From Alistipes sp. (lineage in GTDB: Bacteria; Bacteroidota; Bacteroidia; Bacteroidales; Rikenellaceae): a DNA stretch of 64,000 nt. Positions 9,965 to 54,307 of this stretch are shown in pieces. Within the stretch, counting starts at the first letter, position 1; every line of letters begins with the position of its first letter. The DNA lies in NCBI GenBank assembly GCA_029060215.1, contig JAIDUK010000035.1, forward strand, positions 13,235-77,234, read 5' to 3'. The position numbers and the translations under genes were made by a program. The notes beneath the pieces were generated by a model. That model did not search any database. It worked only from the letters and a program-made list of their open reading frames with translations, and had not been told where the DNA came from.

Positions 9965-10920
9965 GAAAAGATTCTTCGCCGCCTGCGGTTCCTCAGAATG
10001 ACAAAAAGAGGGTTTCTCAGAATGACGGTCGGGTGGTCGGATGGCGGTGGGTTTTGTTCGGATTGCCACGCTCGTTGTACTCGCTCGCAATGACAGAGGG
10101 TAGCAGTATGTCATTCTGAACGCAGTGAAGAATCTGCTTTTGTTGGAAAAACCAGATTCTTCGTCAAGGCGATGCCTTTTCCTCAGAATGACAAAAGGAG
10201 CGAAGAGTGACATGGCGGCTGGGCTCCTCAGAATGACAAAAGGAGCGAAGAATGATGTGGCTGGGTTTCTCAGAATGACAGAGAGCCGCAGCATGTCATG
10301 TTGAACGAAGTGAAACATCTGTGGACATTGGATTCTTGACTGCGTTGCGCTCCTCGCAATGACGGTTAGGTGGTCGGATGGCGGTGGGTTTTGTTCGGAT
10401 TGCCACGTCGCTGCGCTTCTCGCAATGACACAGAGCAGCAGCATGTCATGTTGAACGTAGTGAAACATCTGTATAGTTTGTTCGGTTATAGATTCTTCGC
10501 TATTGCTCAGAATGACGTAGTGAGTTGGGCTCCTCAGAATGACAAAAGGAGTTCAGAAGACAGGGCGAGGGCTCCGCAGAATGACAAGAGGAGCGAAGAA
10601 TGACATGGCGGCTGGGCTCATCAGAATGATACAAGGCAGCAGTATGTCATGTTGAACGAAGTGAAACATCTGTGGACATAGGATTCTCGACTGCGCTGCG
10701 CTCCTCGCAATGACGATGCTGTGGAACAGATTCTTCGCTGCGCTCAGAATGACAGAGGAAGAAGTTTGGAATGACAAATGGTGGGGACTGAATGCCGATT
10801 AAAACGATTTATCACGCAGCTAAAACGTTTTAATCGACGCTTGTGCCGAGCAGGAGCAAAGTTCACTTCTCACATTTCACCTTTCACTTTCCACTTTTCA
10901 CCTTTAACCTTCCACCTGAA
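9965..10920. repeat. Large mosaic REP-like cluster (three GTCAT-tagged hairpin types, a 14-mer hairpin and a heptamer tract)
   Basis: More than ten (C)AGAATGAC/GTCATTCT units, several GCAATGAC units, and GTCATGTTGAACG(A/T)AGTGAAACATCT three times. Confidence 0.9.
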
Positions 10921-18496: not shown

Positions 18497-19060
18497 AAAG
18501 TGAAAAGTGAAATGTGAAAGTGAGAGGTGAAAGGTGAAAGGTGAAAGGTGAAAGTGAAAAGTTATATGTGAAAGGTGGAAAGTGAAAGTGAGAAGTGGAA
18601 AGTGAAAGGTGTCTTGTCATTCTTCACTCCTTTTGTCATTCTGAGGAAAGGCATCGCCTTGACGAAGAATCCGTTTTTCCAACAAAGCAGTTGTTTCACT
18701 GCGTTCAGAATGACATACTGCTGCCCTCTGTCATTGCGAGGAGCGCAGCGAAGAATCTGGTCCGCAGCATCGTCATTGCGAGCGAGTATAACGAGCGTGG
18801 CAATCCGAACAAAACCCACTGCCATCCGACCGCCTGACCGGCATTCTAAGAAACCCGCTCTGTCATTCCGAGAACCCCAGTCAGTCATGTCATTCTTCGC
18901 TCCTCTTGTCATTCTGAGCCCCCCCCCTTGTCATTCTGAGCGCAGCGAAGAATCCGTTTTTCAACAAAGCAGATTCTTCACTTCGTTCAGAATGACATCC
19001 GCTTCCCCTCTCGGACCCTGCCGGGGCGGTCGCGCCATAAGCACGAGCCGGGCGAACCGA
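18497..19060. repeat. GTGAAA(A/G) heptamer tract followed by a mosaic REP-like cluster
   Basis: Tandem GAAAAGT/GAAAGGT units at 18497-18609, then GTCATTCTGAG and GTCATTGCGAG units; modules shared with the 10 kb and 27.5 kb clusters. Confidence 0.9.
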
Positions 19061-27329: not shown

Positions 27330-27775
27330 TTCCACCGCCGTTTTCCGGGCCCTCTGCTGCCATTCTGCGGAGCCCTCGCCCTGTCTTCTGAACTCCTTTT
27401 GCCATTCTGAGGAGCCCAGCCCGCCACGTCATTCTGAGCGATAGCGAAGAATCTATAACCGAACAAACTATACAGATGTTTCACTACGTTCAACATGACA
27501 TACTGCCGCTCTGTGTCATTCTGAAGGGCCCAGCTCACTACGTCATTCTGAGCGATAGCGAAGAATCTATAACTGAACAAACTATACAGATGTTTCACTA
27601 CGTTCAACATGACATACTACGACCCTTTTGTCATTCTGAGGAAAAGGCATCGCCTTGACGAAGAATCCGTTTTCCAACAAAGCAGATTCTTCACTTCGTT
27701 CAGAATGACATCCGCCGCAGCCGCTGGCGGACCCGGCCGGGATGGTCGCGCCATAAGCACGAGCCGGGCGCCGTG
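27330..27775. repeat. Mosaic REP-like cluster with an internal direct duplication
   Basis: An approximately 80-bp block (GTCATTCTGAGCGATAGCGAAGAATCT...AACATGACATACT) occurs twice and also inverted near 10440-10520. Confidence 0.88.
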
Positions 27776-31364: not shown

Positions 31365-31530
31365 GGTGGAAAGTGAAAAGTGGAAAGTGAAAAGTGAAAA
31401 GTGAAAAGTGAAAAGTGAAAGGAAGATCGAACGTTTTGACAGATTCTTCGCTACGCTCAGAATGACATATTTTGTTCGGAAATCTTGCTCAGAATGACAT
31501 ATCTTGCTCGGAATATCTTGTTCGGAATGA
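31365..31530. repeat. GTGAAAA heptamer tract plus REP-like units
   Basis: Near-perfect (GTGAAAA)n at 31365-31422, then AGATTCTTCGCTACGCTCAGAATGAC and degenerate GAATGAC units. Confidence 0.88.
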
Positions 31531-37220: not shown

Positions 37221-37290
37221 GCGATTTTCAATAAAATCGCCGGTGTGTGCGCACACACTTTGGATATTCGAAAAAATGTTCCTATGTTTG
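37221..37290 (+). promoter_or_regulatory. Promoter of the LacI-uxu locus with candidate operator palindromes
   Basis: TTTG at 37259-37262 and TAtgTTTG at 37283-37290 (20-nt spacing); palindromes GCGATTTT-CAAT-AAAATCGC (37221-37240) and GTGTGTGCGCACACAC (37243-37258). Confidence 0.7.
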
Positions 37291-37310: not shown

Positions 37311-38384
37311 ATGAAGGACAAACTCAAGGAACACATTCGGATCGTGGACGTTGCCCGCATGGCCGGAGTTTCGGCCGGAACGGTCGACCGCGTGCTGCAC
37401 AACCGGGGCAAGGTCTCCGAGGAGAATTTGCGTAAAATACGCGAGGTGCTCGCCTCGGTCGACTACCGGCCCAATCTGGTGGCCCGGTCGCTGGCGTCGT
37501 GCCGCGAACGGACGCTGGCCGTCATCATCCCCGCCTACCGCGAGGACGATTACTGGGCCTATGTCGACGCCGGTATTTCGCGCGCCGCCGTGGGGGCCGA
37601 GCGTTTCAACGTGCGCGTGCGCCGGTTCTTCTTCGACCAGTACGACCATGCCACCTTCCTGAAGACGCTCGCCCGCGTACGCGACGAACATTTCGACGGC
37701 GTGCTGCTGGCCACGCTCTTTTCCGATTCGGTGGTCGACTACGCCCGCGAACTCGATGCCGAGGGCACGCCCTATGTCTTCGTCGACTCCAACATACCGG
37801 GGTGCAACCGGCTGGCCTATTTCGGCACTTCGTCGTTCGACGCCGGGGTAGTGGCGGCGCGCCTGCTCTCCGACCGCATCGCGCCGGAGGCCGACATTCT
37901 GGTGGGGAGCATCATCCACCGCGGCGACGGGGGCTCCAACCAGTGCCGCTGCCGCGAGATGGGTTTCCGCGACTACCTCGGCCGCGCGGGCTTCCGGGGC
38001 CGTCTGCTCGGGGCTTCGCTGCGGCTCGACGACGAGGGCTACAACCGCCGCGTGCTCGACGAACTGTTCGAGGAGAATCCCCGCATAGCCGGAGCCGTGA
38101 CCTTCAATTCGACTTGCTACATCCTTGCCAACTACCTCCGCTCGTCGGGCCACGACGGGGTGCGGCTCGTGGGCTACGACGTCATCCGCCGCAACCGCGA
38201 GATGCTCGAAGCCGGGGTGGTCACGGCGCTCGTGGCCCAGCGGCCCGCGGCGCAGGGATTCCACGGTGTGATGGCGCTCTGCGACATGCTGGTCAGCGGG
38301 CGCCGCGGCCCGTCCGACAACCTGATGCCCATCGACATCGTTTTTCGGGAAAACGTCCGTTTTTACAACAGTCATATCATCTAA
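37311..38384 (+). CDS. LacI-family transcriptional regulator (UxuR-like by context)
   Basis: IRIVDVARMAGVSAGTVDRVLHNRG HTH plus periplasmic-binding-type domain. Start at 37311. Confidence 0.9.
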   Translation: MKDKLKEHIRIVDVARMAGVSAGTVDRVLHNRGKVSEENLRKIREVLASVDYRPNLVARSLASCRERTLAVIIPAYREDDYWAYVDAGISRAAVGAERFNVRVRRFFFDQYDHATFLKTLARVRDEHFDGVLLATLFSDSVVDYARELDAEGTPYVFVDSNIPGCNRLAYFGTSSFDAGVVAARLLSDRIAPEADILVGSIIHRGDGGSNQCRCREMGFRDYLGRAGFRGRLLGASLRLDDEGYNRRVLDELFEENPRIAGAVTFNSTCYILANYLRSSGHDGVRLVGYDVIRRNREMLEAGVVTALVAQRPAAQGFHGVMALCDMLVSGRRGPSDNLMPIDIVFRENVRFYNSHII

Positions 38385-38387
38385 GTT

Positions 38388-39200
38388 ATGAAAAATCTTT
38401 TCGATATTTCCGGCAAAGTCGTCGTCGTCACGGGCGGCGCCGGTATCTTGGGCCGCAGCATCTGTCTCTACCTTGCAGAGCAGGGCGCCAAAGTCGCGGT
38501 CCTCGACCGCGACGAGAAGGCTGGCGGCGAGTTGGTCGCAGCCATTGGCAAGGAGGGCGGCGAGGCGCTGTTCCTTGCCACCGACGTGCTCGACCGGGCC
38601 GTATTGGAGCAGAACCGCGCCGATATTCTTGCCGCATACGGCTGCATCGACGTGCTGCTCAACGCTGCGGGCGGCAACATGGGCGGCGCTACGATCGCCC
38701 CCGACAAGTCGTTCCTCGATCTGGAGATCGACGCGTTCCGCAAGGTAGTCGACCTCAATCTGTTCGGCACGGTGCTTCCCACCACCGTTTTCGGCGAGGC
38801 CATGACCGAGCGCAAGAAAGGCGTCATCGTCAACTTCTGCTCCGAATCGGCGTTGCGGCCGCTCACGCGCGTGGTGGGTTACGGCGCCGCCAAGGCCGCC
38901 ATAGCCAATTACACCAAGTATATGGCTGCCGAACTGGCCACGAAGTTCAGCCCCGAGATGCGCGTCAACGCCATCGTGCCCGGGTTCCTGCTGACCAACC
39001 AGAACCGCACACTGCTCACCAACCCCGACGGCAGTTATACCGACCGGGCCAAGACGATCATCGCCCACACGCCTGCCGGACGTTTCGCCGAGCCCGAGGA
39101 GCTGCTGGGCACGATCCACTACCTCATCAGCGACGCTTCGTCGTTCGTGACGGGTGCGCTGGCCGTGGTCGACGGCGGGTTCGACGCGTTCTCGATTTAG
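38388..39200 (+). CDS. uxuB: SDR oxidoreductase, probable D-mannonate (fructuronate) oxidoreductase
   Basis: VTGGAGILG, NAAGGN, YGAAKAA, RVNAIVPGF; adjacent to uxuA. Confidence 0.82.
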   Translation: MKNLFDISGKVVVVTGGAGILGRSICLYLAEQGAKVAVLDRDEKAGGELVAAIGKEGGEALFLATDVLDRAVLEQNRADILAAYGCIDVLLNAAGGNMGGATIAPDKSFLDLEIDAFRKVVDLNLFGTVLPTTVFGEAMTERKKGVIVNFCSESALRPLTRVVGYGAAKAAIANYTKYMAAELATKFSPEMRVNAIVPGFLLTNQNRTLLTNPDGSYTDRAKTIIAHTPAGRFAEPEELLGTIHYLISDASSFVTGALAVVDGGFDAFSI

Positions 39201-39426: not shown

Positions 39427-40605
39427 ATGTATTATTGCACCCAATCTTGGCGCTGGTACGGTCCCGACGACCCCGTATCGCTGGCCTACATCCGGCAGGC
39501 GGGCGCCACCGACATCGTCCACGCGCTGCACCATGTGCCCAACGGCGAGGTGTGGCCCGTCGACGAAATCCGCCGCCGCCAGCAGCTCATCGCCGAGGCC
39601 GGGCTCCGGTGGTCGGTGGTCGAAAGCGTGCCCGTCCACGAACATATCAAGACCCGTTCGGGCGATTTCCGCCGCTACATCGACAACTACAAGCAGTCGA
39701 TCCGCAACCTTGCCGCCTGCGGCATCCGGACCGTCACCTACAACTTCATGCCCGTGCTCGACTGGACGCGGACCGATCTGGCCTTTGCCGTGGGCGACGG
39801 CTCCCGGGCCCTGCGTTTCGAGCGGGCGGCCTTCATGGCTTTCGACCTCTTCATTCTGAAGCGTCCGGCCGCCGAACAGGAATATTCCGACGCCGAAAAA
39901 GCGGTGGCCGAAGCCCGGTTTGCGCGAATGGACGAGTTTGAAAAAGAACTGCTTACGCGCAACATGATCGCCGGGCTGCCGGGCGCCGAAGAGAGCTTCA
40001 CGCTCGAGGAGTTCCGCCGCGAACTCGACCGCTACAAAGAGATCGACGCCGAAACCTTGCGCAGCAACCTTGTGGCGTTCCTGCGCGAAGTATGTCCCGT
40101 GGCCGACGAAGCGGGGGTCGTGCTGGTCATCCATCCCGACGACCCGCCCTGCTCCATTCTCGGCCTGCCGCGCATCCTCTCCACTGCCGAGGATTTCCGC
40201 AAACTCATCGCCGCCGTGCCCAACCCGTCCAACGGTCTGTGTCTCTGCACCGGGTCGTTCGGCGTGCGCGCCGACAACGATCTGCCCGCCATGATGCGCG
40301 AGTTCGGCGACCGCGTGGGCTTCGTCCATCTGCGCTCCACGCAGCGCGATGCCGAAGGCAATTTCTTCGAAGCCAACCACTTGGAAGGCGACGTGCCCAT
40401 GTTCGAAGTGATGCGGGCGCTGCTCGAAATCCAACAGCGGCAGGGGCGGTCGATCCCCATGCGGCCCGACCACGGCCACCAGATGTGCGACGACCTCGGC
40501 CGCCGGTCCAACCCCGGCTATTCGTGCTACGGGCGCCTGCGGGGGCTCGCCGAACTGCGGGGGCTGGAGCAGGGCATAGCCCGGGCGTTGTTCGCCGACA
40601 GATAA
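39427..40605 (+). CDS. uxuA: Mannonate dehydratase
   Basis: [57 protein letters not shown]. Confidence 0.96.
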
Positions 40606-40640: not shown

Positions 40641-43600
40641 ATGAAGAAACTATTGACGCAACTCCATTCGCAGTGGCTGCTCCTTGCGGGGCTCGTGCTG
40701 CTGCTTCCGGGGCTTGCCCGGGCGCAAAGTGCCGGGGGGGGAATTTTGCCTTCTCCGGGGCGGTTTACGCTGACGGCGAGCCTCTGATCGGCGCTTCGAT
40801 CGCCGAGCCCGGTACGCCCAACGGCACCGTTTCGGGGGCTGGCGGCGAGTTCCAGCTCCGCGTGTCGAAGCGCGGCGCCGAGGTGCAGGTGTCGTTCATC
40901 GGCTACCAGACCCGCACCGTGCGGGCGCAGGCCGAGCACCTGCGCATCGATCTGGTGGCCGACGCCCAGCAGATCGACGAAGTGATGGTCGTGGCCTACG
41001 GCACCATGAAGAAACGCGACATCACGGGCGCCGTCACCTCGCTCTCCGAAGAGGCTATCGAACGCAAGATGGCTTCCAACGTCTTCGAAGCCATGCAGGG
41101 TCAGGTGGCCGGTGTCCACATCACCGCCGGTTCGGGCCAGCCCGGCGAGACCGCCACGGTCAACGTGCGCGGTATCTCCACTTTCTCGGCCGAGGGGGTC
41201 AAGCCCCTGTTCGTTGTCGACGGCATCCCCATGGAGGACATCGACGGCATCAACACCTCGGACATCCTTTCGGTCGAGGTGCTCAAGGACGCCGCGTCGG
41301 CCGCCATGTACGGTTCGCGCTCGGCCAACGGTGTCTTCATCATCACCACCAAGGGCGGTTCGGCCAGCGCGCCCCGCGTCGAGGTGAAGTACTACCATTC
41401 GTGGGGCAAGCTCTCCCACAAACTCGCGCAGGCCACCCGCGCCGACCGCCGCAACTACGACCTCAAGCGCCGCGCCTACCTCCTCGAGAACAAGATCGGC
41501 TCGCCCGACGAGAGCTACATGATCATTCAGGACTCGCTCAACGCCTCGTTCAACATCGACAACGACTATCAGGACATTCTGTTCCAGTGGGGGCAGAAGG
41601 ATCAGGTCGACCTGAGCGTTTCGGGCGGTTCCGACAAAATCAAGTACTACGGCTCCACGGGCTACTACAACGAGCGCGGCATCGTGCCCAACACCGGGTT
41701 CCAGCGCCTGACGGCCCGCATCAACGCCGACTACAACGCCAACCGCTGGCTCACGCTCCACAGCCGCGTGTCGCTGGGCTATTCGCAGAAGAACGGCATC
41801 AACGAGGGGCAGCTCATGACCGCCATGCTCTCGCGGCGCCCCTACTTCAACCTCTACTATCCAGACGGGTCGCTCGCGGGCGTCTTCCAAGGGCAGAAAT
41901 CCCCGCTGGCGCAGGTGAAGTACACCACCGACCGCACCGAGTATTACAAGGTCAACTTCTATCAGGGATTCGAGGTCAAGCTGGCCAAGGGGCTCACCTT
42001 CTCCACCAACATCAACGCCAACCTCTACCTCGACAAGCGGCGCCGCGTCTATCCCAGCATGATCACCGACGAGTGGCAGAAGAGCAATACGGGCTACTCC
42101 AACGACAACCTCAACTGGAACTGGCTCAACGAAAACGTCCTGACCTATAAGAATTCGTGGGGCGGCCACAACTTCACCGCCATGGCCGGTTTCAGCGAGC
42201 AGCAGTGGCGTTACGACCGCAACGTCCTGTCGGGCATCAATTCGTCGTCCGACTTCCTGACCACTATGAACGCGTTCTCGGCCAACCTCGTTCTCTCCGA
42301 GACCGGGGCTTGGCAGCAGAACCACGCCATGGCGTCGTTCTTCGCCCGCGTCAACTACGATTACAAGTCGCGCTATCTGGTGCAGGCCACCCTTCGCCGC
42401 GACGGGTCGTCGCGCTTCTCCAAGGAGAACCGCTGGGGCAACTTCCCCTCGGTGTCGGCCGCATGGCGCATCTCCGACGAGCCGTTCATGAAGTTCTCGC
42501 GCCGCGTGCTCGACGACGCCAAGGTGCGTGTGAGCTGGGGCATCACGGGCAACGAGCAGATCGGCAACTACGACTACCTCTATTCCTACGCTACGGGCGA
42601 CATCTACGACGGCATCGGCGGCGTCTATCCCGCACGGCTCGCCGTCGACAACCTGCGCTGGGAGGAGACCCGCCAGACCGACGTGGGTCTCGACCTGAGT
42701 TTCTTCGGGCAGCGGCTCACCCTCACGGCCGACTACTACGACAAGTATACCGACGGTCTGCTGGCCAACCTCGAACTGCCCAAGGAGTCGGGTTTCGACC
42801 GCATGCGCACCAACATCGGCGAGGTCCGCAACCGCGGTTTCGAGCTCACCGTGGCCGGCGATCTGGTGCGGACCCGCGACTTCCGCTGGAACGCGTCGTT
42901 CAACATCTCGCGCAACTGGAACAGCATCGAGCGGCTCTCCACCGGCGAGCCCTACCTTGAGGGCGACCTGTGGTGGATGCAGGAGGGCGGTTCGATCGGC
43001 GACTTCTACGGCTACCGCCAGCTGGGCATCTTCCGCTACGACGAGTCCAACGCCTTCACGCCCGACACGTGGCAGCAGCTCACGCCCGTCTTCGAGGGCG
43101 GCGAGTTCCGCGGCTACACGCTCAACGGCGCGGCCTACACCGGCGACGTGGTGCAGAAGAAGCTGCCCAACGGCAAGCCTTTCCGCGGCGGCGACGTCAA
43201 CTGGGACGAAGCGCCCGGCGCCCGCGACGGGGTCATCGACGAGAACGACCGCATGGTCCTCGGCAACGCCCTGCCCACCTACACCGGAGGTCTCTCCACG
43301 ACGTTCACCTACAAGAACCTGTCGCTCTTCGTCTCGTTCTACTATTCGTTCGGCGCCAAGATCTACAACGACGCCGAGCACCAGCGCAACATGTTCAAGT
43401 ATTCGTCCACGACCCCTTCGCCCCACGTCATCAACAACATCTGGGTGCATCAGGGCGACGAGGCGCTCTACCCGCGGCCCTACAACGACGAGTACAACAA
43501 CGCGCGCTACGCCAATTCGTTCTACCTCGAAAAGGGCGACTTCATCCGCTTGCAGAACGTGCGTCTGAGCTACGACCTGCCCGAGCGGTGGCTCAAGTCC

Positions 43601-43774
43601 GTGCGCATCAAGTCGCTGCAAGTCTATTTCTTCGCCAACAACCCCCTCACATGGACCGCCTACAGCGGTTACGATCCCGAATTCTCGTCGTCCAACCCGC
43701 TGCAAATCGGCAAGGACACCTACCGCTATCCCCACAAGCGCGAATTCGGCGTGGGTCTGAACGTCAAATTTTAA
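40641..43774 (+). CDS. SusC-like TonB-dependent receptor, frameshifted at G8 (40734-40741) as sequenced
   Basis: ATG 40641 frame encodes a signal peptide and stops at 40785-40787; the main frame carries VAYG, LFVVDG, EVLKDAASAAMYGSRSANGVFIITTK and ends in NVKF. Confidence 0.88.
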
Positions 43775-43787
43775 CCGATTTACCGTC

Positions 43788-45233
43788 ATGAAAAAACATA
43801 TCGTCATCCTCGCCGCCGTTTGTCTCTCGGCTTCGCTTGCCGGGTGCGAGTCGTTCCTCGACGAGCAGCCCGTCAGCGAGGTGCCCGCGGGCAGCATGTG
43901 GCAGACTTCGCGCGACGCCAAGGCCGGGGTCAGCCAGATCTACGGTTTCTTCCGCACCGCCATGCGCGAGAATTACTTCTATTGGGGCGAGTTCCGTTCC
44001 GACAACCTTTCGCCCGGCGCTTCGTCGGCCGCCGACCAGCAGCGCGTCATCGACAACCAGCTCACCACCGACCACCGGTGCACCCGCTGGACCGACCTCT
44101 ACAAGGTCATCAATCAGGCCAACCTCTGCATCCGCCACCTGCCCGGCATCGACACGCCGTCGGTGGCCGAGCGCGACGACCTGCTCGGACAGGCCTACGG
44201 CATGCGCGCCTTGGCCTATCTCTACGCCGTGCGGGTGTGGGGCGACGTGCCCCTGTTCGTCGAGCCCAACGAGGAGTACAGCGACGCCATCTACCGCGAG
44301 CGCACCGACCGCGAATACATCCTGCGCGAGGTCATCCTCGAAGACCTCCGCAAGGCCGAGGGGCTCATCGACCGCACCAAGAACAAGGAGCGCAAACGCA
44401 TCTCCATCTACGGCGTGTGGGCCGTCATGGCCGACGCCTACATGTGGCTGGGCGAGTACAGCCTTGCCGACCAGACCATCGAGAAGATGAAGAACGACGC
44501 GTCGTTCATGGCTTTCGAGCCCGGCATCGACACTTGGAAGAAGATGTTCACCGAGGAGCTCAACGGCAAGGCCAGCGACAACACCCCCGAGAACGACGAT
44601 TATTCGACCAAGGAGTTCATCTTCGTCATCCATTTCAACATGGACGAGGTCGGCACCAACGGTTTCAGCTACATGTACCAGTGGTTCACCGGGTCGGGCA
44701 ACCGCGCCGGGGTCGTCTCCGAAACCCTGCGCAACAAGTTCGACCGCGCCGCCGACCTGCGCTTCCCGCTCGTGACCAAGGAGTATCAGGCCGGTTGGGA
44801 GATGCGCAAATACATCTCGGGCGACATTTCGTCCACGCTCAACAAGACTTGTCAGGTGGCCTATCCCGTCTACCGCTATTCCGACATGCTGCTTTTGCAG
44901 GCCGAGGCGCTGGCCCGGCTGAGCAAGTGGGAGGAGGCGCTCGATCTGGTCAAGCTCGTCCGCACGCGCGCCGGGCTCGACACTCCGCAGGCGTCGGACT
45001 TCGCCACCGAGGACGAGCTGGTCGACTTCATCCTCGACGAGCGGCAGCGCGAACTCCTCGGCGAGGGGCGCCGGTGGTTCGACCTCGTGCGCACCGGACG
45101 CTGGAAGAGCGTCATGGGGCCCATCAACGGGTGCAGCGAGGACGGCAACGAGTTCTTCCCCATCCACTATTCGCACCTCGACCAGAACAAGGCGCTCAGA
45201 CAGAACGCCTACTATGCCCAGAATCAGGAATAA
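43788..45233 (+). CDS. SusD/RagB-family lipoprotein
   Basis: Lipobox LAGC, RALAYLYAVRVWGDVP, YRYSDMLLLQAEAL, ERQRELLGEGRRWFDLVR. Confidence 0.93.
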   Translation: MKKHIVILAAVCLSASLAGCESFLDEQPVSEVPAGSMWQTSRDAKAGVSQIYGFFRTAMRENYFYWGEFRSDNLSPGASSAADQQRVIDNQLTTDHRCTRWTDLYKVINQANLCIRHLPGIDTPSVAERDDLLGQAYGMRALAYLYAVRVWGDVPLFVEPNEEYSDAIYRERTDREYILREVILEDLRKAEGLIDRTKNKERKRISIYGVWAVMADAYMWLGEYSLADQTIEKMKNDASFMAFEPGIDTWKKMFTEELNGKASDNTPENDDYSTKEFIFVIHFNMDEVGTNGFSYMYQWFTGSGNRAGVVSETLRNKFDRAADLRFPLVTKEYQAGWEMRKYISGDISSTLNKTCQVAYPVYRYSDMLLLQAEALARLSKWEEALDLVKLVRTRAGLDTPQASDFATEDELVDFILDERQRELLGEGRRWFDLVRTGRWKSVMGPINGCSEDGNEFFPIHYSHLDQNKALRQNAYYAQNQE

Positions 45234-45255: not shown

Positions 45256-45858
45256 ATGTTCAAGCATATCGTTCTTAAGTTGTCGCTGCTGGCGCTCGTC
45301 GTTTCGGCCGGGTGCAGCGACATGAAGTTGCAGACCGACGCCGACTACGACGCTTCGGTGCTCGATCCCCGCGTCGACATGACGGCGTGGGAGTGGATCG
45401 AGACGCGCCCCGACCTCTTTTCCAAGTTCATGGCGGCCGTCGAGATGGCCGGCATGAAGGAGTATTACACCCAGACCGGGCATCCCTACACGTTCCTCGT
45501 GCTGACCGACACCGCCATGAACAATTTCGTCGGGTCGCAGAACGTCTCTTCGCTCGAGGAGTGTTCGGCCGAGAGCGTGCGCAACCTCTTGCTCTACCAC
45601 ATCGTCGACGGTGTCTACAGCAGTTACGGCGATCTGCCCGTCGAGCCCATCTTCGTGCTCACGCTCCGGCGCGGCGAGCAGGGGTTGATGACCATGCTCA
45701 CGCGCAAGAACCCGTGGATGGCCGACGCCGGAAAGATCGTGGTCAACGACACGGGCAGCAACGGTTCCTCGCCCATGCGGCTGGCCGTCAGCTCCAACAT
45801 CATACCCACCAACGGCGTCGTGCACGTCTTCGAGAACTATTGTTATTACAAGAAGTAG
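45256..45858 (+). CDS. Fasciclin (FAS1) domain lipoprotein
   Basis: Lipobox SAGC, YTFLVLTD, LLYHIV, IPTNGVVHV. Confidence 0.82.
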   Translation: MFKHIVLKLSLLALVVSAGCSDMKLQTDADYDASVLDPRVDMTAWEWIETRPDLFSKFMAAVEMAGMKEYYTQTGHPYTFLVLTDTAMNNFVGSQNVSSLEECSAESVRNLLLYHIVDGVYSSYGDLPVEPIFVLTLRRGEQGLMTMLTRKNPWMADAGKIVVNDTGSNGSSPMRLAVSSNIIPTNGVVHVFENYCYYKK

Positions 45859-45887: not shown

Positions 45888-47450
45888 ATGAACAAGCATT
45901 TAATCATATCCTTGCTGGCATGGTGCTTCGCCGCCGTGTCGCTGGCGGCCTGTTCCGACGACGAGGGGCTCGACCCCTCGGCCGCCAAGCCCGTCGTGGC
46001 CTATCCCTACGACACGCTCGTGGCCGACCTCAACATGGTCGACAACCTGCCCGTCATCGCCGTCGTCAAGTCCGAGACCGGGTTGCGCAGCGTCTCGCTC
46101 TCGATCCGCACCGCCGAGGGCGGCGAGGTGCCCGTGACGACCGTCACCGAGTTCTTCGACCGCAACAGCTACAGCCTTGCCGAGTCGATTGCCTACAAGG
46201 CCGATTACGTGGCGGCCGTCGTTGCAGCCGTCGATTTGCTCGGGCGTTCGGCCGAGGCCGAGCTGCCCATCGAGATCGTCGACATCGTCGAGCCCCCGCA
46301 GATCGTCTTCACGCCCGAGAGTTGGACCTACGACGAGACCGTGGGCGGCGACTTGCCTAATACCCATTTCGTCGTCACCAGCGAAGTGGCGCTCAAGAGC
46401 ATCGAGATGTTCCGCGTCTCCACCGAGGGGCAGACCCAGTACGGCGGTACCGTCACGGGCGGCGATACTGATCCGTGGGTGCGTTACGAGTTCGACGCAC
46501 TGATTGCCTACGGCGAGAACGACCGCGGTTTCCGCGTGCGGGCCGTCGACAGCTACGATCAGGTGCGCATCGTCTCGCTCCCTGTCAAGTATAAGACCGT
46601 GCCGCCGCCCACCGTCACGCCGGCCACCGAAACTATCGTCGCCGAGCGCGACGAAAGCAAGGCCGTGGCGTTGGACATCGAGTCCATGGCCGGGGTGGTC
46701 AAGGTTGAGTTGTTCCTGCGCAAGGGTAAGACGGTCGCTTCCGAGCCCGTGTTGACGAAAACCTATGCCGAGAAGCTCAACAAGCTCGCTTTCGCCGAGC
46801 AGATTGAGTTTACCGATGACGTTTCCGGCGTCCGGGCCGTCGTCACCGACAATGTCGGCCGTTCGTCGACCGTCGACATCAAGGCTATCGTCGGCATGGA
46901 GTTCGTCGAGGATGCGATAATCGGGTCCATAGGCTTTACCGATGGAAATGCCTCTCAGCCGGGTGTCTATTCGCTCTTCTCGCTCAAGTATATGACCACC
47001 TTGCCTATGACCGAGGTGCTTGATAATGCTACTTCCACAAGCGCCGACGTGGACATTTGCTACTACAACATGAGTAACAAGACCTTCCGCATCTACTCTC
47101 CCGACGGCGAAAAGAAAAGCGAGTATAAGGTGGCGGACGGGCGTACGCTGAGCAATCTTCCGGCAGCCGTTCTGACCCGCTACCAGCTTCGCAACGACAT
47201 CGACTTCGACAGCGCTACGGTCGCAACGATCTCCGAGCAGGTCATTGCCGGGCAGTTGACTTCGTCCAGAATTGATGCGAACGTCGGCGACGTGATCGCT
47301 TTCAAGACCGGCGGTAAGTCATCTGCTGGGGGTAACAGGGTCGGTATTCTCAAGGTGGTGAACATCGTGTCGTATACGACCGAAACGGGTGCTGCGAAAG
47401 ATACCCAGAAGTCTACGGTCACCGTCGCCATCAAGTTTCCCAAGCAGTAG
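45888..47450 (+). CDS. Multidomain surface lipoprotein (putative surface glycan-binding protein)
   Basis: Lipobox LAAC-SDD, repeated beta-rich Ig-like modules, position after SusD. Start at 45888. Confidence 0.75.
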   Translation: MNKHLIISLLAWCFAAVSLAACSDDEGLDPSAAKPVVAYPYDTLVADLNMVDNLPVIAVVKSETGLRSVSLSIRTAEGGEVPVTTVTEFFDRNSYSLAESIAYKADYVAAVVAAVDLLGRSAEAELPIEIVDIVEPPQIVFTPESWTYDETVGGDLPNTHFVVTSEVALKSIEMFRVSTEGQTQYGGTVTGGDTDPWVRYEFDALIAYGENDRGFRVRAVDSYDQVRIVSLPVKYKTVPPPTVTPATETIVAERDESKAVALDIESMAGVVKVELFLRKGKTVASEPVLTKTYAEKLNKLAFAEQIEFTDDVSGVRAVVTDNVGRSSTVDIKAIVGMEFVEDAIIGSIGFTDGNASQPGVYSLFSLKYMTTLPMTEVLDNATSTSADVDICYYNMSNKTFRIYSPDGEKKSEYKVADGRTLSNLPAAVLTRYQLRNDIDFDSATVATISEQVIAGQLTSSRIDANVGDVIAFKTGGKSSAGGNRVGILKVVNIVSYTTETGAAKDTQKSTVTVAIKFPKQ

Positions 47451-47523: not shown

Positions 47524-49329
47524 ATGAATCCTTTCCGCCTGCTTTTGTTGCCCGCGCTTTGCGGCGTTTTGTCCCTCTCGGCCCAGAACGGCAAGAAAGT
47601 CTACGCCGACTACCACGGCGTGCGCTATACGCGCGCCCACGACGGCAAGCTGGGCCGTTGGGAGATGCACGCCGATACGCACAAGTCGGCCACGGGCCGC
47701 CAGCGGCTTTGCTACAACGCCGATTTTTGCGATTCGCTCGGGCGCCGCGACCTCGCTGCCGTGGCTTCTCCCGCCATCGGCATGCAGTCCGACCTCGACC
47801 CCCACGCCATCGAGTACCGGATCCTCGCGGCCAAGACCGCCGGGATCGACGGCTTCTTCGTCGAGTGGGGTTTCATGGGCCACGAGAACGACCTTTTGCT
47901 CCGCGCCATGCAGCCCGTCGCCGCCAAGTACGGTTTCGAGATCGGCGTCAATTGGTGCGACGGCTGGCTCTACTACGATTGGATCACGCGCCTGCACCCG
48001 CATATCGTCACCCGCGAGCAGAAGACCGACCACTACGCCCGGTGTTACCAGTATCTGGTCGACAGCGTCCTTTCCGGTCCCACCGCGCCCCGCGTCGGCG
48101 GGCGGCCCGTCTTCTACCTCTTCGGGCCCGGGGCTTCGCCCGAGGAGTATGCCCGCGCCGTGGCGCAGGTCCGTTTCCCCGAGGGGGAGCCGCGTCCCGT
48201 CGTCCTGCGGCGGTGGGCCGAGTGGGGCAGGCTCGTCGGCGACCGTTACGAGCCCGTGCGGTGGAGCCCCGACATCGAGGCTTGGCGCAGGCTCGGGGCG
48301 GTTCCCGCTCCGTGGCTGCCCGCCCGCGTCCGGCCCCGCGACGAAGCCCATGCCGAGTGGGACCATTGGGCTTCGCCCGACGACTGCGTCGAGTTCATGA
48401 AGCCGTTCCGCGATTCGGTGTGGCTCGCTTCCGACCCCGCCTACAGCGTCAAGGCCGGTTTCGTCGCTCCCGGTATGGACAACCGCGGGTGCGCAGGGTG
48501 GGGGGCTCAGCATTTCTACCTCATCCCCCGCGACGGGGGCCGCACCTACGAGCGGCTGTGGCGGTTTTGTCTGGATTCGCGCGACAGTCTCGACATGGTT
48601 TTCATCGCTTCGTGGAGCGATTATACCGAGGGCCACGAGATCGAGCCCACGCTCGAAAACGGCGACCGCGAGTTGCGCACCACGCTGCGCTGCGCTGCGG
48701 CGTTCAAGGGCGTCGTTCCCGATTCTTCCGGTCTGGAGTTGCCCGCGCGGCTTTTTGCAGCCCGGAAGCGCGGGGTTTTGCTCGCCGCCGCCCGGCGCAA
48801 GACCGCCGGAGCCGATGCCTTGCTCGACCGCGCCGCTCTGAGCATCGCCCGCGCCGATTACGCCGATGCCCGGCAGTCGCTTGCCGAGGCCGAAGCTGCT
48901 CTTGGGGCATTGGAGAAGGGTTTGAAAGCCCGTTCCCTCGACCTCGCCGAATCAGACTTGCGTTTCAGCCGCGAGCCTTTGCACGGGGTTCGGAGCGCCG
49001 ATCCCGAGTTGAAGGTTTACTTCCCCGCGTGGGCGCTCGGGCCGTTGATGACCGCCCGCACCCATTCCGGTTGCCTCGAATTCGAGTTCTTCGACGGTGC
49101 TCCCGACGAGCGTTTCGCTTTCGTCTATTCGCGTACCGACCGCGCCCCCAAGGAGTTGTTCGCCACCGTGGCCAAGTTCCCCACCGGCGGTTCCGGCCGT
49201 TGGAAGCGCGTGCGCGTCGAGCTGGCTCCCGGCAACGTGCTCTACGACATGGGTTCCAACTTCACCTTCATGTTCAAGGGGCCCGTTCGGGTGCGCAACG
49301 TTTCGTTCCACTATACTTTGTTCCGATGA
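47524..49329 (+). CDS. Secreted GH71/GH99-like glycoside hydrolase
   Basis: Signal peptide; GIDGFFVEW, PVFYLF, PGMDNRG and IASWSDYTEGHEIEP resemble GH99-like barrel motifs. Confidence 0.6.
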   Translation: MNPFRLLLLPALCGVLSLSAQNGKKVYADYHGVRYTRAHDGKLGRWEMHADTHKSATGRQRLCYNADFCDSLGRRDLAAVASPAIGMQSDLDPHAIEYRILAAKTAGIDGFFVEWGFMGHENDLLLRAMQPVAAKYGFEIGVNWCDGWLYYDWITRLHPHIVTREQKTDHYARCYQYLVDSVLSGPTAPRVGGRPVFYLFGPGASPEEYARAVAQVRFPEGEPRPVVLRRWAEWGRLVGDRYEPVRWSPDIEAWRRLGAVPAPWLPARVRPRDEAHAEWDHWASPDDCVEFMKPFRDSVWLASDPAYSVKAGFVAPGMDNRGCAGWGAQHFYLIPRDGGRTYERLWRFCLDSRDSLDMVFIASWSDYTEGHEIEPTLENGDRELRTTLRCAAAFKGVVPDSSGLELPARLFAARKRGVLLAAARRKTAGADALLDRAALSIARADYADARQSLAEAEAALGALEKGLKARSLDLAESDLRFSREPLHGVRSADPELKVYFPAWALGPLMTARTHSGCLEFEFFDGAPDERFAFVYSRTDRAPKELFATVAKFPTGGSGRWKRVRVELAPGNVLYDMGSNFTFMFKGPVRVRNVSFHYTLFR

Positions 49330-51680
49330 CCTGCAAAGCATTCCTTTTCGCCGCGGCTTTTCTCGCCTGCGCTTGCGGCGGCCCCCGCCGCGACGGCAAT
49401 ACGTTCCGGTTCGACGACCGGGGTATGGCCTGCGCCGTCGAATTCCGGTCCGGGAGGGCCGTGCGCATCCTCGTGCGGCCCGACAGCGCCCGGCTCGTCA
49501 CCCGCAGGCTCGTCACCGTCCCTGCTGACGCTCCCGTCGACGTGCGGTGCCGTTCCGACAGGGAGGGTTATCTGTTCCGTACTTCGCAGTTGGAGGTCCG
49601 CTACGACCGTGCGTCGGGGCGTTTCTCGTTCTTCGATCCCGCTTCCGAGCAGCCCTTGCTCGAAGAGGACGCGCGCTCGCTCGTGCCCGACACCGTCGGC
49701 GGCGAGGCTTGTTATGCCGTCGCGCAGTCGTTCCGCACTTCGCCCGACGAATCGCTCTTCGGGCTCGGGCAGTACCGCACCGGGCGCGTCGACCATAAGC
49801 GCGATACGGTGCTGCTCTTGCAGGCCAACAAGGAGATCGCCAACCCCTGCCTCGTCTCGTCGCGCGGTTACGGCTTGTTGTGGGACAATTATTCGGCCTC
49901 CGAGTTCCGCGACGGCGGCGACCGCTTCGAGTTCGTCTCCGAGGTGGGCGATGCCGTCGACTACTGGTTCGTGCGCGGCGACGACCCGGCCGATTGCGTG
50001 CGCGGCTACCGCGAGCTCACCGGGGCCGCTTCGCTGCCGCCCAAATGGGTCTTCGGCTTCTGGCAGTCGCGCGAGCGCTACAAGTCGTTCGACGAGCTCG
50101 AAAGCGTCGTGCAGGAGTTCCGCAGGCGGCGCATTCCCCTCGACGTCATCGTGCAGGACTGGGAGTATTGGGGCGACAGGCCGCAGTGGAATGCCCTCGG
50201 GTGGGATTCCGTGCGTTTTCCCGACCCCGCCGCCCGCATCGACCGCCTGCACAGGCATTACGGCGTCCGGCTCATGCTTTCGGTCTGGCCCGGGTTCGGG
50301 CCGCAGACGGCCGTTTACCGCGAGTTGGAGCAGGCCGGGGCGTTGTTCGACGAGCCTACGTGGGCCGGTTACAAGGTTTTCGACGCCTTCGATTCCGTGG
50401 GCCGCGACATCGTTTGGCGCCACTTCAGCCGCGGGCTCCTCTCTACCGGGGTCGACGGTTGGTGGATGGACGCCACCGAGCCCTCGTTCCGCGAGGGATT
50501 CACCCAGCGGCGGCAGGAGGCGCGTTCCAAGGCGGCCGGGCAGACCGCTTGGGGGCCTTTCCACCGCTACCTCAACGCCTATTCGCTCGTCTGGATGGCC
50601 GACCTCTACGGCCGCCTGCGCGCCGCGCAGCCCGATCGCAGACCTTTCCTCTTCACCCGGTCGGCTTTCGCCGGGCAGCAGCGCTTCGGCACCGCCGTCT
50701 GGTCGGGCGACGTCGTCGCTTCGTGGGACAGTTTCCGGCGGCAGCTCGCCGCCGGGGCGGGGCTCTCAGCTTCGGGTTTTCCGTGGTGGACTTTCGATGC
50801 GGGCGGGTTCTTCGTCAGCACCAACGGCGGACCCTATCCCCGCGGTCTGGCCGACCCCGACTACCTCGACCTCTACGCCCGCTGGTTCCAGTTCGCGGCG
50901 TTCCTGCCCATCTTCCGCGCCCACGGCACCGACGTGCCGCGCGAGCCGTGGCAGTTCGGCGGCGAGCAGAGCCTCTTCTACCGCAACCAGCTCAAGTACA
51001 TCGACCTGCGTTACCGCCTGATGCCTTTCATCTACTCCGCCGCCCGCCGCGTCGCCGCCGAGGACGCGTCCATGTTCGAGCCCCTCGGCATGGCTTTTCC
51101 CGCCGACCGTGCCGTCGCCGCGGCCGACGATTCCTACCTCTTCGGCGGGGCGCTGCTCGTGCGGCCCGTCTTCCGCCCCATGCCTGCCGGAGCCCGGCAG
51201 CAGCAGGTCGCCACCTTGTTGCCGCGCCACGAGGGGGCGTGGTGGTACGATTTCTTCACGGGTCGGGCTCACCGCGGCGGCGCATGCGTCGCCAAGGCTT
51301 GCGACCTCACCGAGTTGCCCCTCTATGTGCGCGGCGGCTCGATCGTGCCTCTCGGCGAGCCTAAGCAGTCCGTCATGGAGGGCCCCGACGAGCGGCTCGA
51401 AATCCGCATCTATGCCGGGGCCGACGCCCGTTTCGACCTCTACGACGATTCCGGCGACGGCTTCGGTTATCTCGACGGCCGCCATGCTCTTGTCCGTTTC
51501 GAGTGGGACGATGCCGCGTCCGTGCTGCGCATAGCCCGCCGCGAGGGGGCCTACGAGGGGATGGCTTGCGTGCAGGAGCTGACCCTGCGGCTGTTCCGCC
51601 CCGGCTGCGCTCCCGTCGTGCGGCAGGTCCGTTATTCCGGCGAGCCTTTGTCCGTTGCTTTTAACGATCCTATTTTATGA
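49326..51680 (+). CDS. GH31 alpha-glycosidase (alpha-xylosidase/glucosidase-like)
   Basis: GFWQSRERY, IVQDW, WWMDATEP, WSGDV, RWFQF...FRAHG. Start MTCKAF at 49326. Confidence 0.9.
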   Translation: MTCKAFLFAAAFLACACGGPRRDGNTFRFDDRGMACAVEFRSGRAVRILVRPDSARLVTRRLVTVPADAPVDVRCRSDREGYLFRTSQLEVRYDRASGRFSFFDPASEQPLLEEDARSLVPDTVGGEACYAVAQSFRTSPDESLFGLGQYRTGRVDHKRDTVLLLQANKEIANPCLVSSRGYGLLWDNYSASEFRDGGDRFEFVSEVGDAVDYWFVRGDDPADCVRGYRELTGAASLPPKWVFGFWQSRERYKSFDELESVVQEFRRRRIPLDVIVQDWEYWGDRPQWNALGWDSVRFPDPAARIDRLHRHYGVRLMLSVWPGFGPQTAVYRELEQAGALFDEPTWAGYKVFDAFDSVGRDIVWRHFSRGLLSTGVDGWWMDATEPSFREGFTQRRQEARSKAAGQTAWGPFHRYLNAYSLVWMADLYGRLRAAQPDRRPFLFTRSAFAGQQRFGTAVWSGDVVASWDSFRRQLAAGAGLSASGFPWWTFDAGGFFVSTNGGPYPRGLADPDYLDLYARWFQFAAFLPIFRAHGTDVPREPWQFGGEQSLFYRNQLKYIDLRYRLMPFIYSAARRVAAEDASMFEPLGMAFPADRAVAAADDSYLFGGALLVRPVFRPMPAGARQQQVATLLPRHEGAWWYDFFTGRAHRGGACVAKACDLTELPLYVRGGSIVPLGEPKQSVMEGPDERLEIRIYAGADARFDLYDDSGDGFGYLDGRHALVRFEWDDAASVLRIARREGAYEGMACVQELTLRLFRPGCAPVVRQVRYSGEPLSVAFNDPIL

Positions 51681-54307
51681 TACGATTCCTTTCCGTTCTG
51701 TTCTTCGCACTGATGCCGCTGGCGCCGCTCGCCGCCCGCGAGCGCTATACCATCAACGAGGCTTGGCGCTTCTCGAAAGGTTCGCCTTACGGGGCGTTCC
51801 TGCCCGGGGCCGACGATGCCGCGTGGGAGACGGTCGACATTCCCCACACGTGGAACGCCGCCGATGCCGACGACGACGAGCCCGGCTTCTATCGCGGCCC
51901 GGGGTGGTACCGCAAGCGTTTCTTCCTCTCCGAAGCCGCCGCGGCCGGGCAGGTCTACCTCTGTTTCGAGGGGGTCGACCAGTTCGCCTGCGTCTGGGTC
52001 AACGGCCATTTCGCCGGGAAGCATGCGGGCGGGTACACGCGTTTCGTCGTCGACATCACGCCGTTCGTCGCCCCGGGCGAGAACCTCGTGGCCGTCGAGG
52101 CCGACAACCGCCACGACCCCGACATGCCGCCCCTCTCGGCCGACTTCACCTTCTTCGGGGGCATCTACCGCGATGTCGGCCTTTTGCTCACCGATAAGAT
52201 CCACATCGCCCCCACCGACATGGCTTCTTCGGGCGTCTACCTCTCCACGCCCCGCGTCACGGCGCAGTCGGCCGAGGTCGACATCCGCACGCTGGTGGCC
52301 AACCGCTCCGGCCGCGAGGCCCGGGTGCGCGTCGAGCACCGCATCTTCGCCCCCGACGGTTCCGAGGCCGCCCGGGCGGAGCAGGAGTTTGTCGTTGCGC
52401 CCGGCCAGACCGCCGAGCCCCTTTGCCGGGGCATCCGCATTGCCGATCCGCAGCTGTGGGACCTCGACGCTCCCAACCTCTACCGTGTTCTCACGCGCAT
52501 AATCGACGCCGACGGCACCGAACTCGACTGCGTATCCGACCCGCTGGGGCTCCGGTGGTTCGAGTTCGATCCCGACAAGGGGTTCTCGCTCAACGGACGT
52601 CCGCGCAAACTGGTCGGCACCTGCCGCCATCAGGACTACGAAAGGCGCGGCTGGGCCCTCGCCGACGCCATGCACGAACGCGACATCCGCCTTTTGAAGC
52701 AGATGGGCGGCAATTTCCTGCGCGTTTCCCACTATCCGCAGGACCCCGTCGTGCTCGAAATGTGCGACAGGCTGGGCATTCTCGCGTCGGTCGAGATTCC
52801 CGTTGTCAACGCCGTCACCGAGAGCGACGCCTTCCTCGACAACTGCGTCCGCATGGTCCGCGAGATGATCCGGCAGGATTTCAACCACCCGTCGGTGATC
52901 ATTTGGGCCTACATGAACGAGGTCTTGCTTCGGCCGCCCTACAAGGATCCGGAGCGGCTGGCGACCTATTACAAGGCCGTCGAGCGCGTCGCCCGGGCCT
53001 TGGAGGATGCCGTGCGGGCCGAGGACCCCTCGCGCTATACCATGATGGCCTACCACAACGCGCCCGAAGCCTATGCCGCTGCCGGGCTCACCTGCATCCC
53101 CATGATTCAGGGCTGGAACCTCTATCAGGGGTGGTACGAAAAGGACATCACCCGGTTCGAGAAGATCCTCGACCGGCTCCACGCCGAGTATCCCGACAAG
53201 GTGCTGATGGTCACCGAGTACGGGGCCGACGTCGATCAGCGGGTCCACTCGTTCGCCCCCGAGCAGTTCGATTTTTCGCAGGAGTACGGGCTCGTCTATC
53301 ATCGGCATTACCTGCGCGAGATCATGCGGCGTCCGTTCGTCGCCGGGTCGTCGGTCTGGAACCTCAACAGCTTCTATTCCGAGCCGCGCGCCGACGCCGT
53401 GCCCCATGTCAACCTCAAGGGGCTCACCGGGCTCGACCGCGAACCCAAAGACACCTACCTTTTCTATAAGGCCCGGCTGGCCGGGCCGCAGCTGCTGATC
53501 GGCCATCGGCGCTGGGAGAACCGCGGCGGGGCCGACGACGGCCGGGGCCGCTCGACGCAGCCCGTTCCGGTCTTCTCCGACCGGCCGGCCGTCACGTTGT
53601 TCCACAACGGGCGCAAGCTCGCCACCAAGAAGCCCGAGGGCGGGGTGGCTATGTTCGACGTGCCGTTCGTCGACGGCGAAAACAGGCTCGTCGCCACGGC
53701 CGGGTCGCACACCGACGCCCTGACCGTCGATTTCCGCCTGATGAAGGCTTCGCCGCGCGAGTTCTCCGAGCTCTGCGTCATGTTGGGCTCGCCCCGCTAC
53801 TTCGACGACCGCACGGCCGGTACAGCGTGGATTCCCGAGCAGCCCTACAGCCCCGGCAGCTGGGGCTACGTCGGCGGACGTCCTCTGCGCCGCGAGGGTA
53901 CGGGGTGGCTCGGGTCGGCGGCCGACATCAAGGGCACCGACTGCAACGCCCTCTTCCAGACCCAGCGCGTCGGCATCGAGCAGTTCCGCGCCGACGTGCC
54001 CGACGGTACTTATTCCGTCTACTTCCATTGGGCCGAACTCGATGCCGAGGGCGAGCGCGAAGCCTTGGCCTACAACCTCGGGGCCGACGACGCCGGGACC
54101 TGTTACCGGGGGCGCCGTTTCGACGTGGCGATCAACGGTTCCAAACTGTTGGAGAATTTCTCCATCGCCGACGAAGCCGGGTTCGCCCGCGCCTTGGTCC
54201 GCAAGGCCGAGGTCGTGGTCCACGACGGGCAGGGCATCCGCATCGACTTTCTTCCCGTCGAGGGCGAACCCGTGCTGAACGCCATCCGCATCTACCGCAA
54301 CCATTGA
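51677..54307 (+). CDS. GH2 enzyme, probable beta-glucuronidase, with C-terminal malectin-like module
   Basis: RVSHYPQ, WAYMNE (acid/base), VTEYGAD (nucleophile), HVNLKGL (N-x-K-G motif associated with GUS enzymes), LFQTQR...HWAE...FDVAING. Confidence 0.85.
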   Translation: MIRFLSVLFFALMPLAPLAARERYTINEAWRFSKGSPYGAFLPGADDAAWETVDIPHTWNAADADDDEPGFYRGPGWYRKRFFLSEAAAAGQVYLCFEGVDQFACVWVNGHFAGKHAGGYTRFVVDITPFVAPGENLVAVEADNRHDPDMPPLSADFTFFGGIYRDVGLLLTDKIHIAPTDMASSGVYLSTPRVTAQSAEVDIRTLVANRSGREARVRVEHRIFAPDGSEAARAEQEFVVAPGQTAEPLCRGIRIADPQLWDLDAPNLYRVLTRIIDADGTELDCVSDPLGLRWFEFDPDKGFSLNGRPRKLVGTCRHQDYERRGWALADAMHERDIRLLKQMGGNFLRVSHYPQDPVVLEMCDRLGILASVEIPVVNAVTESDAFLDNCVRMVREMIRQDFNHPSVIIWAYMNEVLLRPPYKDPERLATYYKAVERVARALEDAVRAEDPSRYTMMAYHNAPEAYAAAGLTCIPMIQGWNLYQGWYEKDITRFEKILDRLHAEYPDKVLMVTEYGADVDQRVHSFAPEQFDFSQEYGLVYHRHYLREIMRRPFVAGSSVWNLNSFYSEPRADAVPHVNLKGLTGLDREPKDTYLFYKARLAGPQLLIGHRRWENRGGADDGRGRSTQPVPVFSDRPAVTLFHNGRKLATKKPEGGVAMFDVPFVDGENRLVATAGSHTDALTVDFRLMKASPREFSELCVMLGSPRYFDDRTAGTAWIPEQPYSPGSWGYVGGRPLRREGTGWLGSAADIKGTDCNALFQTQRVGIEQFRADVPDGTYSVYFHWAELDAEGEREALAYNLGADDAGTCYRGRRFDVAINGSKLLENFSIADEAGFARALVRKAEVVVHDGQGIRIDFLPVEGEPVLNAIRIYRNH

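Follow-up and report, generated by a model that had tools for sequence, protein, structure and literature searches.

A poly-G tract behind the signal peptide of an Alistipes SusC gene as a likely translational ON/OFF switch

The SusC gene and its homopolymer

In an Alistipes genome of 2.07 Mb (46 contigs, 60% GC), a gene for a SusC/RagA TonB-dependent transporter is divided between two reading frames by a run of eight guanines lying just past its signal peptide, and this tract is the subject of the present analysis. The window, by which we mean the whole 64,000-nucleotide stretch that was analyzed (C29:13235-77234), belongs to a species to which Alistipes muris DSM 112343 is the nearest named relative, with a SusC that is 95% identical at the protein level. 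A first-pass annotation of the window had proposed that the run switches SusC out of frame and makes the surrounding polysaccharide utilization locus (PUL) a candidate for phase variation.

The start codon, the G8 run and the premature stop all lie where the first-pass annotation had placed them (Table 1). Translation from the ATG at 40641 gives MKKLLTQLHSQWLLLAGLVLLLPGLARA-QSAGGG, passes through exactly eight G, and then continues as ILPSPGRFTLTASL until it meets a TGA stop. The long open reading frame (ORF) that contains the receptor extends from 40673 to 43774, and the portion of it upstream of the tract, VAAPCGARAAASGACPGAKCRGG, does not form a signal peptide; real coding begins at 40742 and reads NFAFSGAVYADGEPLIGA... 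If one G is added to the tract, or if two are removed, the signal peptide is joined to this receptor sequence, as had been claimed for nine (or six) G, and the fused gene of 1044 amino acids (aa) is present in other samples. The state of the gene can be read from tract length: G9 encodes Gly-Gly-Gly and is ON, while G8, G10, and G11 are OFF. The run sits 93 nt into the ORF, where a change of a single base decides whether a 48-codon stub or the 1044-aa protein is made. It thereby has the repeat tract of a simple sequence repeat (SSR) contingency locus, that is, at least 7-8 G/C whose change in length alters expression.

The part of the gene downstream of the tract carries the domains CarbopepD_reg_2 (PF13715), Plug (PF07715), and TonB_dep_Rec_b-barrel (PF00593). 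An ON allele from another sample (L021:853-3987) matches the SusC/RagA family model TIGR04056 over its full length with 839.6 bits (cut-off 368.25) and carries the TIGR04057 signature with 53 bits (cut-off 46.2). With this match, the order of its domains, and a SusD gene directly downstream, the transporter belongs to the SusC/RagA family.

Table 1. Features of the susC locus in the window (positions are those of the window)
Feature	Position	Strand	Remarks
LacI-family regulator	37311-38384	+	
D-mannonate oxidoreductase UxuB	38388-39200	+	NF006132, above cut-off
Mannonate dehydratase UxuA	39427-40605	+	
Start codon and 28-residue signal peptide of SusC (MKKLLTQLHSQWLLLAGLVLLLPGLARA), frame 0	40641..40724	+	read from sequence; N-terminus shared with the ON allele (1044 aa) of other samples, among them L021 and L025
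G8 homopolymer, switch tract	40734..40741	+	linker between signal-peptide cleavage site and first strand of CarboxypepD_reg domain
SusC/RagA TonB-dependent transporter body, 1010 codons, intact	40742..43774	+	-1 frame relative to the ATG; Pfam domains
Premature TGA ending the signal-peptide frame	40785..40787	+	after 48 codons, G8 state
SusD-family lipoprotein	43788..45233	+	Pfam SusD-like_3 and SusD_RagB (PF14322, PF07980); begins 13 nt past SusC stop
Fasciclin-domain protein	45256-45858	+	
Two proteins of unknown function	45888-47450 and 47524-49329	+	
GH31	49326-51680	+	
GH2 with malectin domain	51713-54307	+	best NCBIfam match beta-glucuronidase LacZ4, below model cut-off

The locus is a PUL of the glucuronide type, tied to glucuronate catabolism. 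The sole Bacteroidetes-type promoter box that we found there (TTTG, 20 nt, TATGTTTG, the last being the -7 box) lies at 37283, ahead of lacI, and the gap between uxuA and susC is 35 nt long with no promoter motif in it. Because the gap is so short and without a promoter, and because the only box stands before lacI, susC is likely to be cotranscribed with the upstream genes, and susC, lacI, uxuB, and uxuA probably form one operon.

Tract length in other samples and in sister species

Contigs of the same species were found by exact-protein look-up with UxuA, SusD, and full-length SusC. In all three assemblies obtained in this way (ERZ14208438, ERZ14208471, and SRR14411252), the tract is nine G long and the gene call for SusC spans 1044 aa. 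When the same-species loci L020, L021, and L025 were aligned with the window, there were 0 mismatches over 4.2-9.4 kb, and the single alignment gap was the tract itself. Thus, in two of the three assemblies, G9 stands against the G8 of the window within flanks that are otherwise identical over 4-9 kb. The 1010-codon receptor body likewise has 0 mismatches to these ON alleles, which agrees with the earlier view that the rest of SusC is intact. Across ~70 kb of same-species alignment, indels were seen only at poly-G tracts and at one A-run in a diverged strain, and because they are confined in this way, the assembly is not generally prone to homopolymer errors; general assembly noise was ruled out as an explanation on the same grounds. 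A scan of JGI metagenomes with the exact flanks of the focal species gave no match.

We then compared the orthologous SusC genes of nine other Alistipes species-level genomes, in all of which the tract keeps one offset from the ATG, +88 to +93. In five species (L002, L003, L004, L005, and L007) the tract is G9 and the gene is ON, with ORFs of 1043-1046 aa. Three genomes are OFF: one metagenome-assembled genome (MAG) with G8 (L006), a second with G10 (L010), and the isolate A. muris DSM 112343, sequenced at 62x coverage, with G11 (L001). In the ninth, also a MAG (L013), the tract is interrupted and reads GGGGAGGAGGG, which locks the gene stably ON. A degenerate version of the JGI metagenome scan yielded one match, an A. 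muris-like contig (L064) that is 99.1% identical to the A. muris isolate over 6.4 kb, and here again the only gap is the tract, with G8 in the contig and G11 in the isolate. Orthologues from genera other than Alistipes (62-65% identity) have no tract.

Counting all samples, 13 homopolymer alleles were obtained, 8 ON and 5 OFF; the latter come from at least four lineages and represent three lengths (8, 10, and 11). The comparison across strains that the first-pass annotation had called for, extended here to sister species, finds 8, 9, 10, and 11 G at one site rather than a fixed length. None of the sampled OFF genes carries a second lesion. A perfect tract is retained in 9 of the 10 species, and since GGG accounts for only 19% of the Gly codons in the genome, three consecutive GGG codons kept over many species are not neutral.

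G9 tracts in the genome and in the genus

The focal tract is one of ~60 in the genome and forms part of a pattern that is genus-wide. Runs of G/C become rarer by ~16-fold with each added base between length 5 (2034 runs), length 6 (135), and length 7 (9), from which ~0.5 runs of length 8 and ~0.03 of length 9 would be expected by extrapolation. The observed number is instead 7 at length 8 and 54 at length 9, with a single run at 10 and another at 11. A technical cap at nine G was considered and ruled out, as G10 and G11 occur in the same and in sister assemblies and the same peak is found in complete genomes.

Tracts were placed relative to genes with a crude caller based on codon usage and GC3 (GC content at third codon positions), trained on ORFs with GC3 > 0.78, which returned 1652 genes and 85% coding sequence. 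Although the genome is ~85% coding, 41 of the 64 tracts of length 8 or more (64%) are intergenic, and 13 of the 23 coding tracts lie within the first 12% of their gene. Seven of the ~17 genes for TonB-dependent receptors have a tract no further than ~110 codons from their start, just past the signal peptide, inside it, or in loops of the CarboxypepD_reg domain; because the positions differ among paralogous receptor genes, the tracts were probably gained repeatedly and independently. Five of these seven genes are in frame, all at length 9, and the two that are out of frame are the focal gene (G8) and C44:41150 (G10). The latter is a second SusC-like gene with its tract in the CarboxypepD_reg domain, and it is likewise G10 and OFF in SRR14411252, where it is broken into ORFs of 84 + 904 aa, whereas its counterpart in ERZ14208471 is G9 and ON, with an intact ORF of 979 aa (loci L055 and L056). 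The PUL around C44:41150 holds two genes of the ADP-ribosylglycohydrolase family. Three lipoprotein genes (C11:9342, C28:18638, and C44:29030) have a tract beside the lipobox, and in C28:18638, which encodes a BACON-domain lipoprotein, a perfect lipoprotein signal peptide is obtained only in the G10 frame.

Among the intergenic tracts, at least five stand in the 17-22 nt spacer that separates a -33-like TTTG from a TAnnTTTG -7 box. The G9 tracts found between promoter boxes (C11:44055, C13:1924, C30:11982, C30:154949, C40:37083, C28:13308, and C43:27415) are, judged by their placement, candidate switches of promoter strength, and their layout is the same as that of the promoter-spacer switches of Neisseria. 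The tracts at C11:44055 and C13:1924 belong to a repeated, promoter-bearing element that has many copies in A. muris and MGBC116833. At C12:65253, a G9/C9 tract lies 6 nt 5′ of the ATG of a 771-aa gene, that is, in the ribosome-binding region and in neither an ORF nor a promoter spacer.

The window itself has a second tract, a C9 run on the + strand at 18919-18927 (C29:32153), which is intergenic and flanked by two copies of the 10-mer CAGAATGACA. The window holds 19 copies of this 10-mer where 0.12 would be expected, in intergenic clusters (9994-10754, 18634-18997, 21868, 27514-27710, and 31458-31499) and within longer units of the form GATTCTTCG...CTCAGAATGACA. Several of the G9 tracts in the genome are embedded in clusters of the same type.

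When 28 tract regions were concatenated and compared with A. muris and MGBC116833, the tracts were found to be kept at orthologous sites although identity in the flanks is no more than 73-91%; G9 predominates, alongside some G10 or G11 tracts and some that are interrupted. Of 41 Alistipes genomes sampled, 40 have runs of exactly nine G; the median is ~20, and two single-contig genomes have 124 and 100. For lengths 8, 9, and 10, the counts are 7, 54, and 1 in this genome; 40, 124, and 2 in the complete Alistipes genome G004; 16, 100, and 9 in G011; 7, 65, and 12 in G030; and 48, 159, and 6 in G033. Nine is the most frequent length in each Alistipes genome that was checked, the two single-contig genomes included, and because the other genomes show it as well, the peak at nine is not an artefact of the focal assembly. 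In 70 genomes from 70 other Bacteroidales families, the median is ~2 such runs and the maximum is 24. In G004, the strand carrying the G-run flips at ~1.1 Mb and ~2.25 Mb, and in ~80% of the tracts listed the G lies on one and the same replication strand, a pattern suggestive of a bias by replichore or gene orientation.

We regard it as somewhat more probable than otherwise that the genus Alistipes runs a large poly-G phasome while remaining proficient in mismatch repair, with tens to >150 G9-centred tracts per genome that independently gate ~40% of the SusC-like receptors, several lipoproteins, and many promoters. Such a phasome would be a second layer of phase variation in Bacteroidales, independent of inversion.

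The switch, its alternatives and its meaning

It is likely, in our judgment, that the tract at 40734-40741 is a hypermutable SSR by which the translation of SusC is switched ON and OFF, in a glucuronide-type PUL of a mouse-gut Alistipes near A. muris. Slipped-strand switching, as first suggested for this site, is supported by a tract that is polymorphic, that is the sole indel in kilobases of flank, that lies in an otherwise intact gene, and that belongs to a genome-wide G9 class clustered at gene starts and promoters. Slipped-strand mispairing during replication would add or drop a G. With G9, the signal peptide would be in frame with the receptor (ON, 1044 aa), and with G8, as assembled here, or with G10 or G11, translation would halt after 48-50 codons (OFF). 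The 3-kb untranslated susC message of the OFF state would probably lower the expression of susD and the downstream glycosidases by polarity, and given a cytoplasmic LacI-type sensor, the loss of import could also withhold the inducer. Because susC has no promoter of its own and lies behind lacI-uxuB-uxuA, such a switch would uncouple the outer-membrane importer from the cytoplasmic catabolic genes. Switching would be reversible within a lineage, and phage, antibody, or nutrient bet-hedging are candidates for the selective agent.

Several observations weigh against this interpretation. The G8 allele of the focal species is found only in this assembly, and the three other assemblies of the species are all G9. 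By exact look-up, the products of the OFF state (a 1033-aa product starting at GTG and the 48-aa stub) have no record, so that no other record carries the G8 product of the focal species. The genome has intact MutS1 and MutL genes, and the instability of the tract is therefore not aided by a loss of mismatch repair. The tract in C28:18638 is G9, its OFF frame, in 8 of 8 samples (this genome and seven others, L057-L063), which means that not every tract varies on the timescale sampled. Finally, poly-C runs of 73 and 18 at the starts of two contigs (C32:1-73 and C33:1-18) are two-colour Illumina artefacts, and with data of this kind a miscall at one tract is possible.

The alternative that survives best is that the focal G8 is in truth a G9 that was miscalled in the consensus or assembly, in which case the gene would be ON in the sampled population and the locus might still be hypermutable. 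We consider this unlikely. The ~70 kb of same-species alignment has no indels beyond the poly-G tracts except for the A-run in the diverged strain, 54 other tracts were assembled as G9, and OFF lengths at the focal site occur in four independent assemblies, including the 62x isolate genome with G11. The first-pass annotation had held a sequencing error to be an equally simple explanation, and for the focal allele alone the G9 state of the three same-species assemblies gives this some force, but it does not account for the OFF lengths in the four other assemblies. Even if the focal allele were a miscall, the nature of the locus would be unchanged.

A still less probable alternative, which we give little credence, is a plain and recent loss of function at a mutational hot spot, with a fragile tract that is not maintained as a switch and with OFF alleles that are decaying. 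Homopolymers are indel hot spots anywhere, and OFF alleles are frequent here (5 of 13 sampled). None of the OFF alleles, however, has a second lesion, and the 1010-codon body in the window is identical to that of ON alleles. The perfect tract is kept in 9 of the 10 species despite a codon bias against GGG, the different positions of the tracts in paralogous SusC genes imply repeated gain, and the tracts form a sharp class at G9 with no decaying tail. The earlier statement that the gene does not show general decay is supported by the intact body, the OFF alleles free of further damage, and the conserved perfect tract. A leaky OFF state or dosage control, in which full-length SusC is still made from the G8 allele through RNA polymerase slippage or ribosomal frameshifting, is very improbable, for although bacterial RNA polymerases are known to slip on long homopolymers, the in-frame G9 is the commonest allele in relatives, as ordinary decoding predicts, the three OFF lengths (8, 10, and 11) would demand slippage in both directions, and no frameshift-stimulating structure was seen, none having been looked for.

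An invertible promoter was also considered and rejected, as only imperfect inverted repeats of 14-28 nt (71-93%) are found within 36.5-41.5 kb and none of them brackets a promoter. The locus is thus without inverted repeats suited to phase variation of the invertase type; a recombinase gene was not searched for.

The arrangement that we favour, a TonB-dependent receptor switched by the length of a poly-G tract, has counterparts in other bacteria. The haemoglobin receptors HmbR and HpuAB of Neisseria meningitidis have a poly-G tract inside the ORF (PMC3786947). As is proposed for the Alistipes SusC, they are TonB-dependent receptors that switch with the length of this tract in the presence of mismatch repair, and their tract lengths differ among isolates. 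They are, however, iron/haem receptors of a pathogen, whereas the Alistipes gene stands at the head of a PUL in a Bacteroidales gut commensal and encodes a glycan importer of the SusC/RagA type, and unlike them, it sits in an operon behind catabolic genes, where its switch probably drags SusD and glycosidases along. The haemoglobin-haptoglobin receptors HgpA, HgpB, and HgpC of Haemophilus influenzae have CCAA repeats just past the signal peptide. Here the likeness to Alistipes lies in a repeat that directly follows the part of a TonB-dependent receptor gene encoding the signal peptide and in several paralogues that are switched independently; the hgp repeat is a tetranucleotide rather than a homopolymer, and phylum and substrate are different.

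For Campylobacter jejuni NCTC11168, a phasome of 29 tracts of at least 7 G/C has been described (PMC4965091, PMC6321876). The likeness to Alistipes lies in many poly-G/C tracts that form a class distinct from background and affect surface structures. The Alistipes tracts outnumber those of C. jejuni: the 2.07 Mb of the focal genome hold 63 that are at least 8 long, and a complete 3.3-Mb genome holds 166 with lengths of 8-10. About two thirds of the tracts in the focal genome are intergenic, several between the -33 and -7 boxes of Bacteroidetes promoters. Campylobacter is not known to have MutS and MutL, whereas the Alistipes genome has both. Within the Bacteroidales, SusC/SusD phase variation by site-specific DNA inversion has been described in Bacteroides fragilis and Bacteroides thetaiotaomicron, according to the account of Nakayama-Imaohji 2009 given in PMC11868660 and PMC12632263. 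The proposed Alistipes switch shares with it the target (SusC/SusD pairs), the bacterial order, and the presumed purpose, but the mechanism differs, as it is a homopolymer frameshift without flanking inverted repeats or an invertible promoter.

Reviews published in 2025 on phase variation (PMC11868660) and on model Bacteroidales (PMC12632263) treat only inversion-based switching in this order and leave repeat-based switching unmentioned. Searches of the paper library turned up nothing on poly-G tracts in Alistipes, nor any account of phase variation through homopolymers or SSRs in this genus or in SusC genes. The mechanism is a classic one; the host order (Bacteroidales) and the target (SusC) are new.

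If the tracts switch, SusC genes that appear frameshifted at G runs in MAG annotation should neither be taken for pseudogenes nor be silently polished to G9. One Alistipes strain would then be a mixture of cells with differing sets of glycan importers and surface lipoproteins, and such a mixture would bear on the response to diet, on escape from phage and IgA, and on strain engraftment. Because A. muris has been cultured, Alistipes would become a tractable commensal model for contingency loci. Multi-locus phasomes based on repeats seem to be restricted to pathogens (PMC11868660), and a phasome throughout the genus, if true, would be a counterexample to the view of repeat-based multi-locus phase variation as a trait of pathogens.

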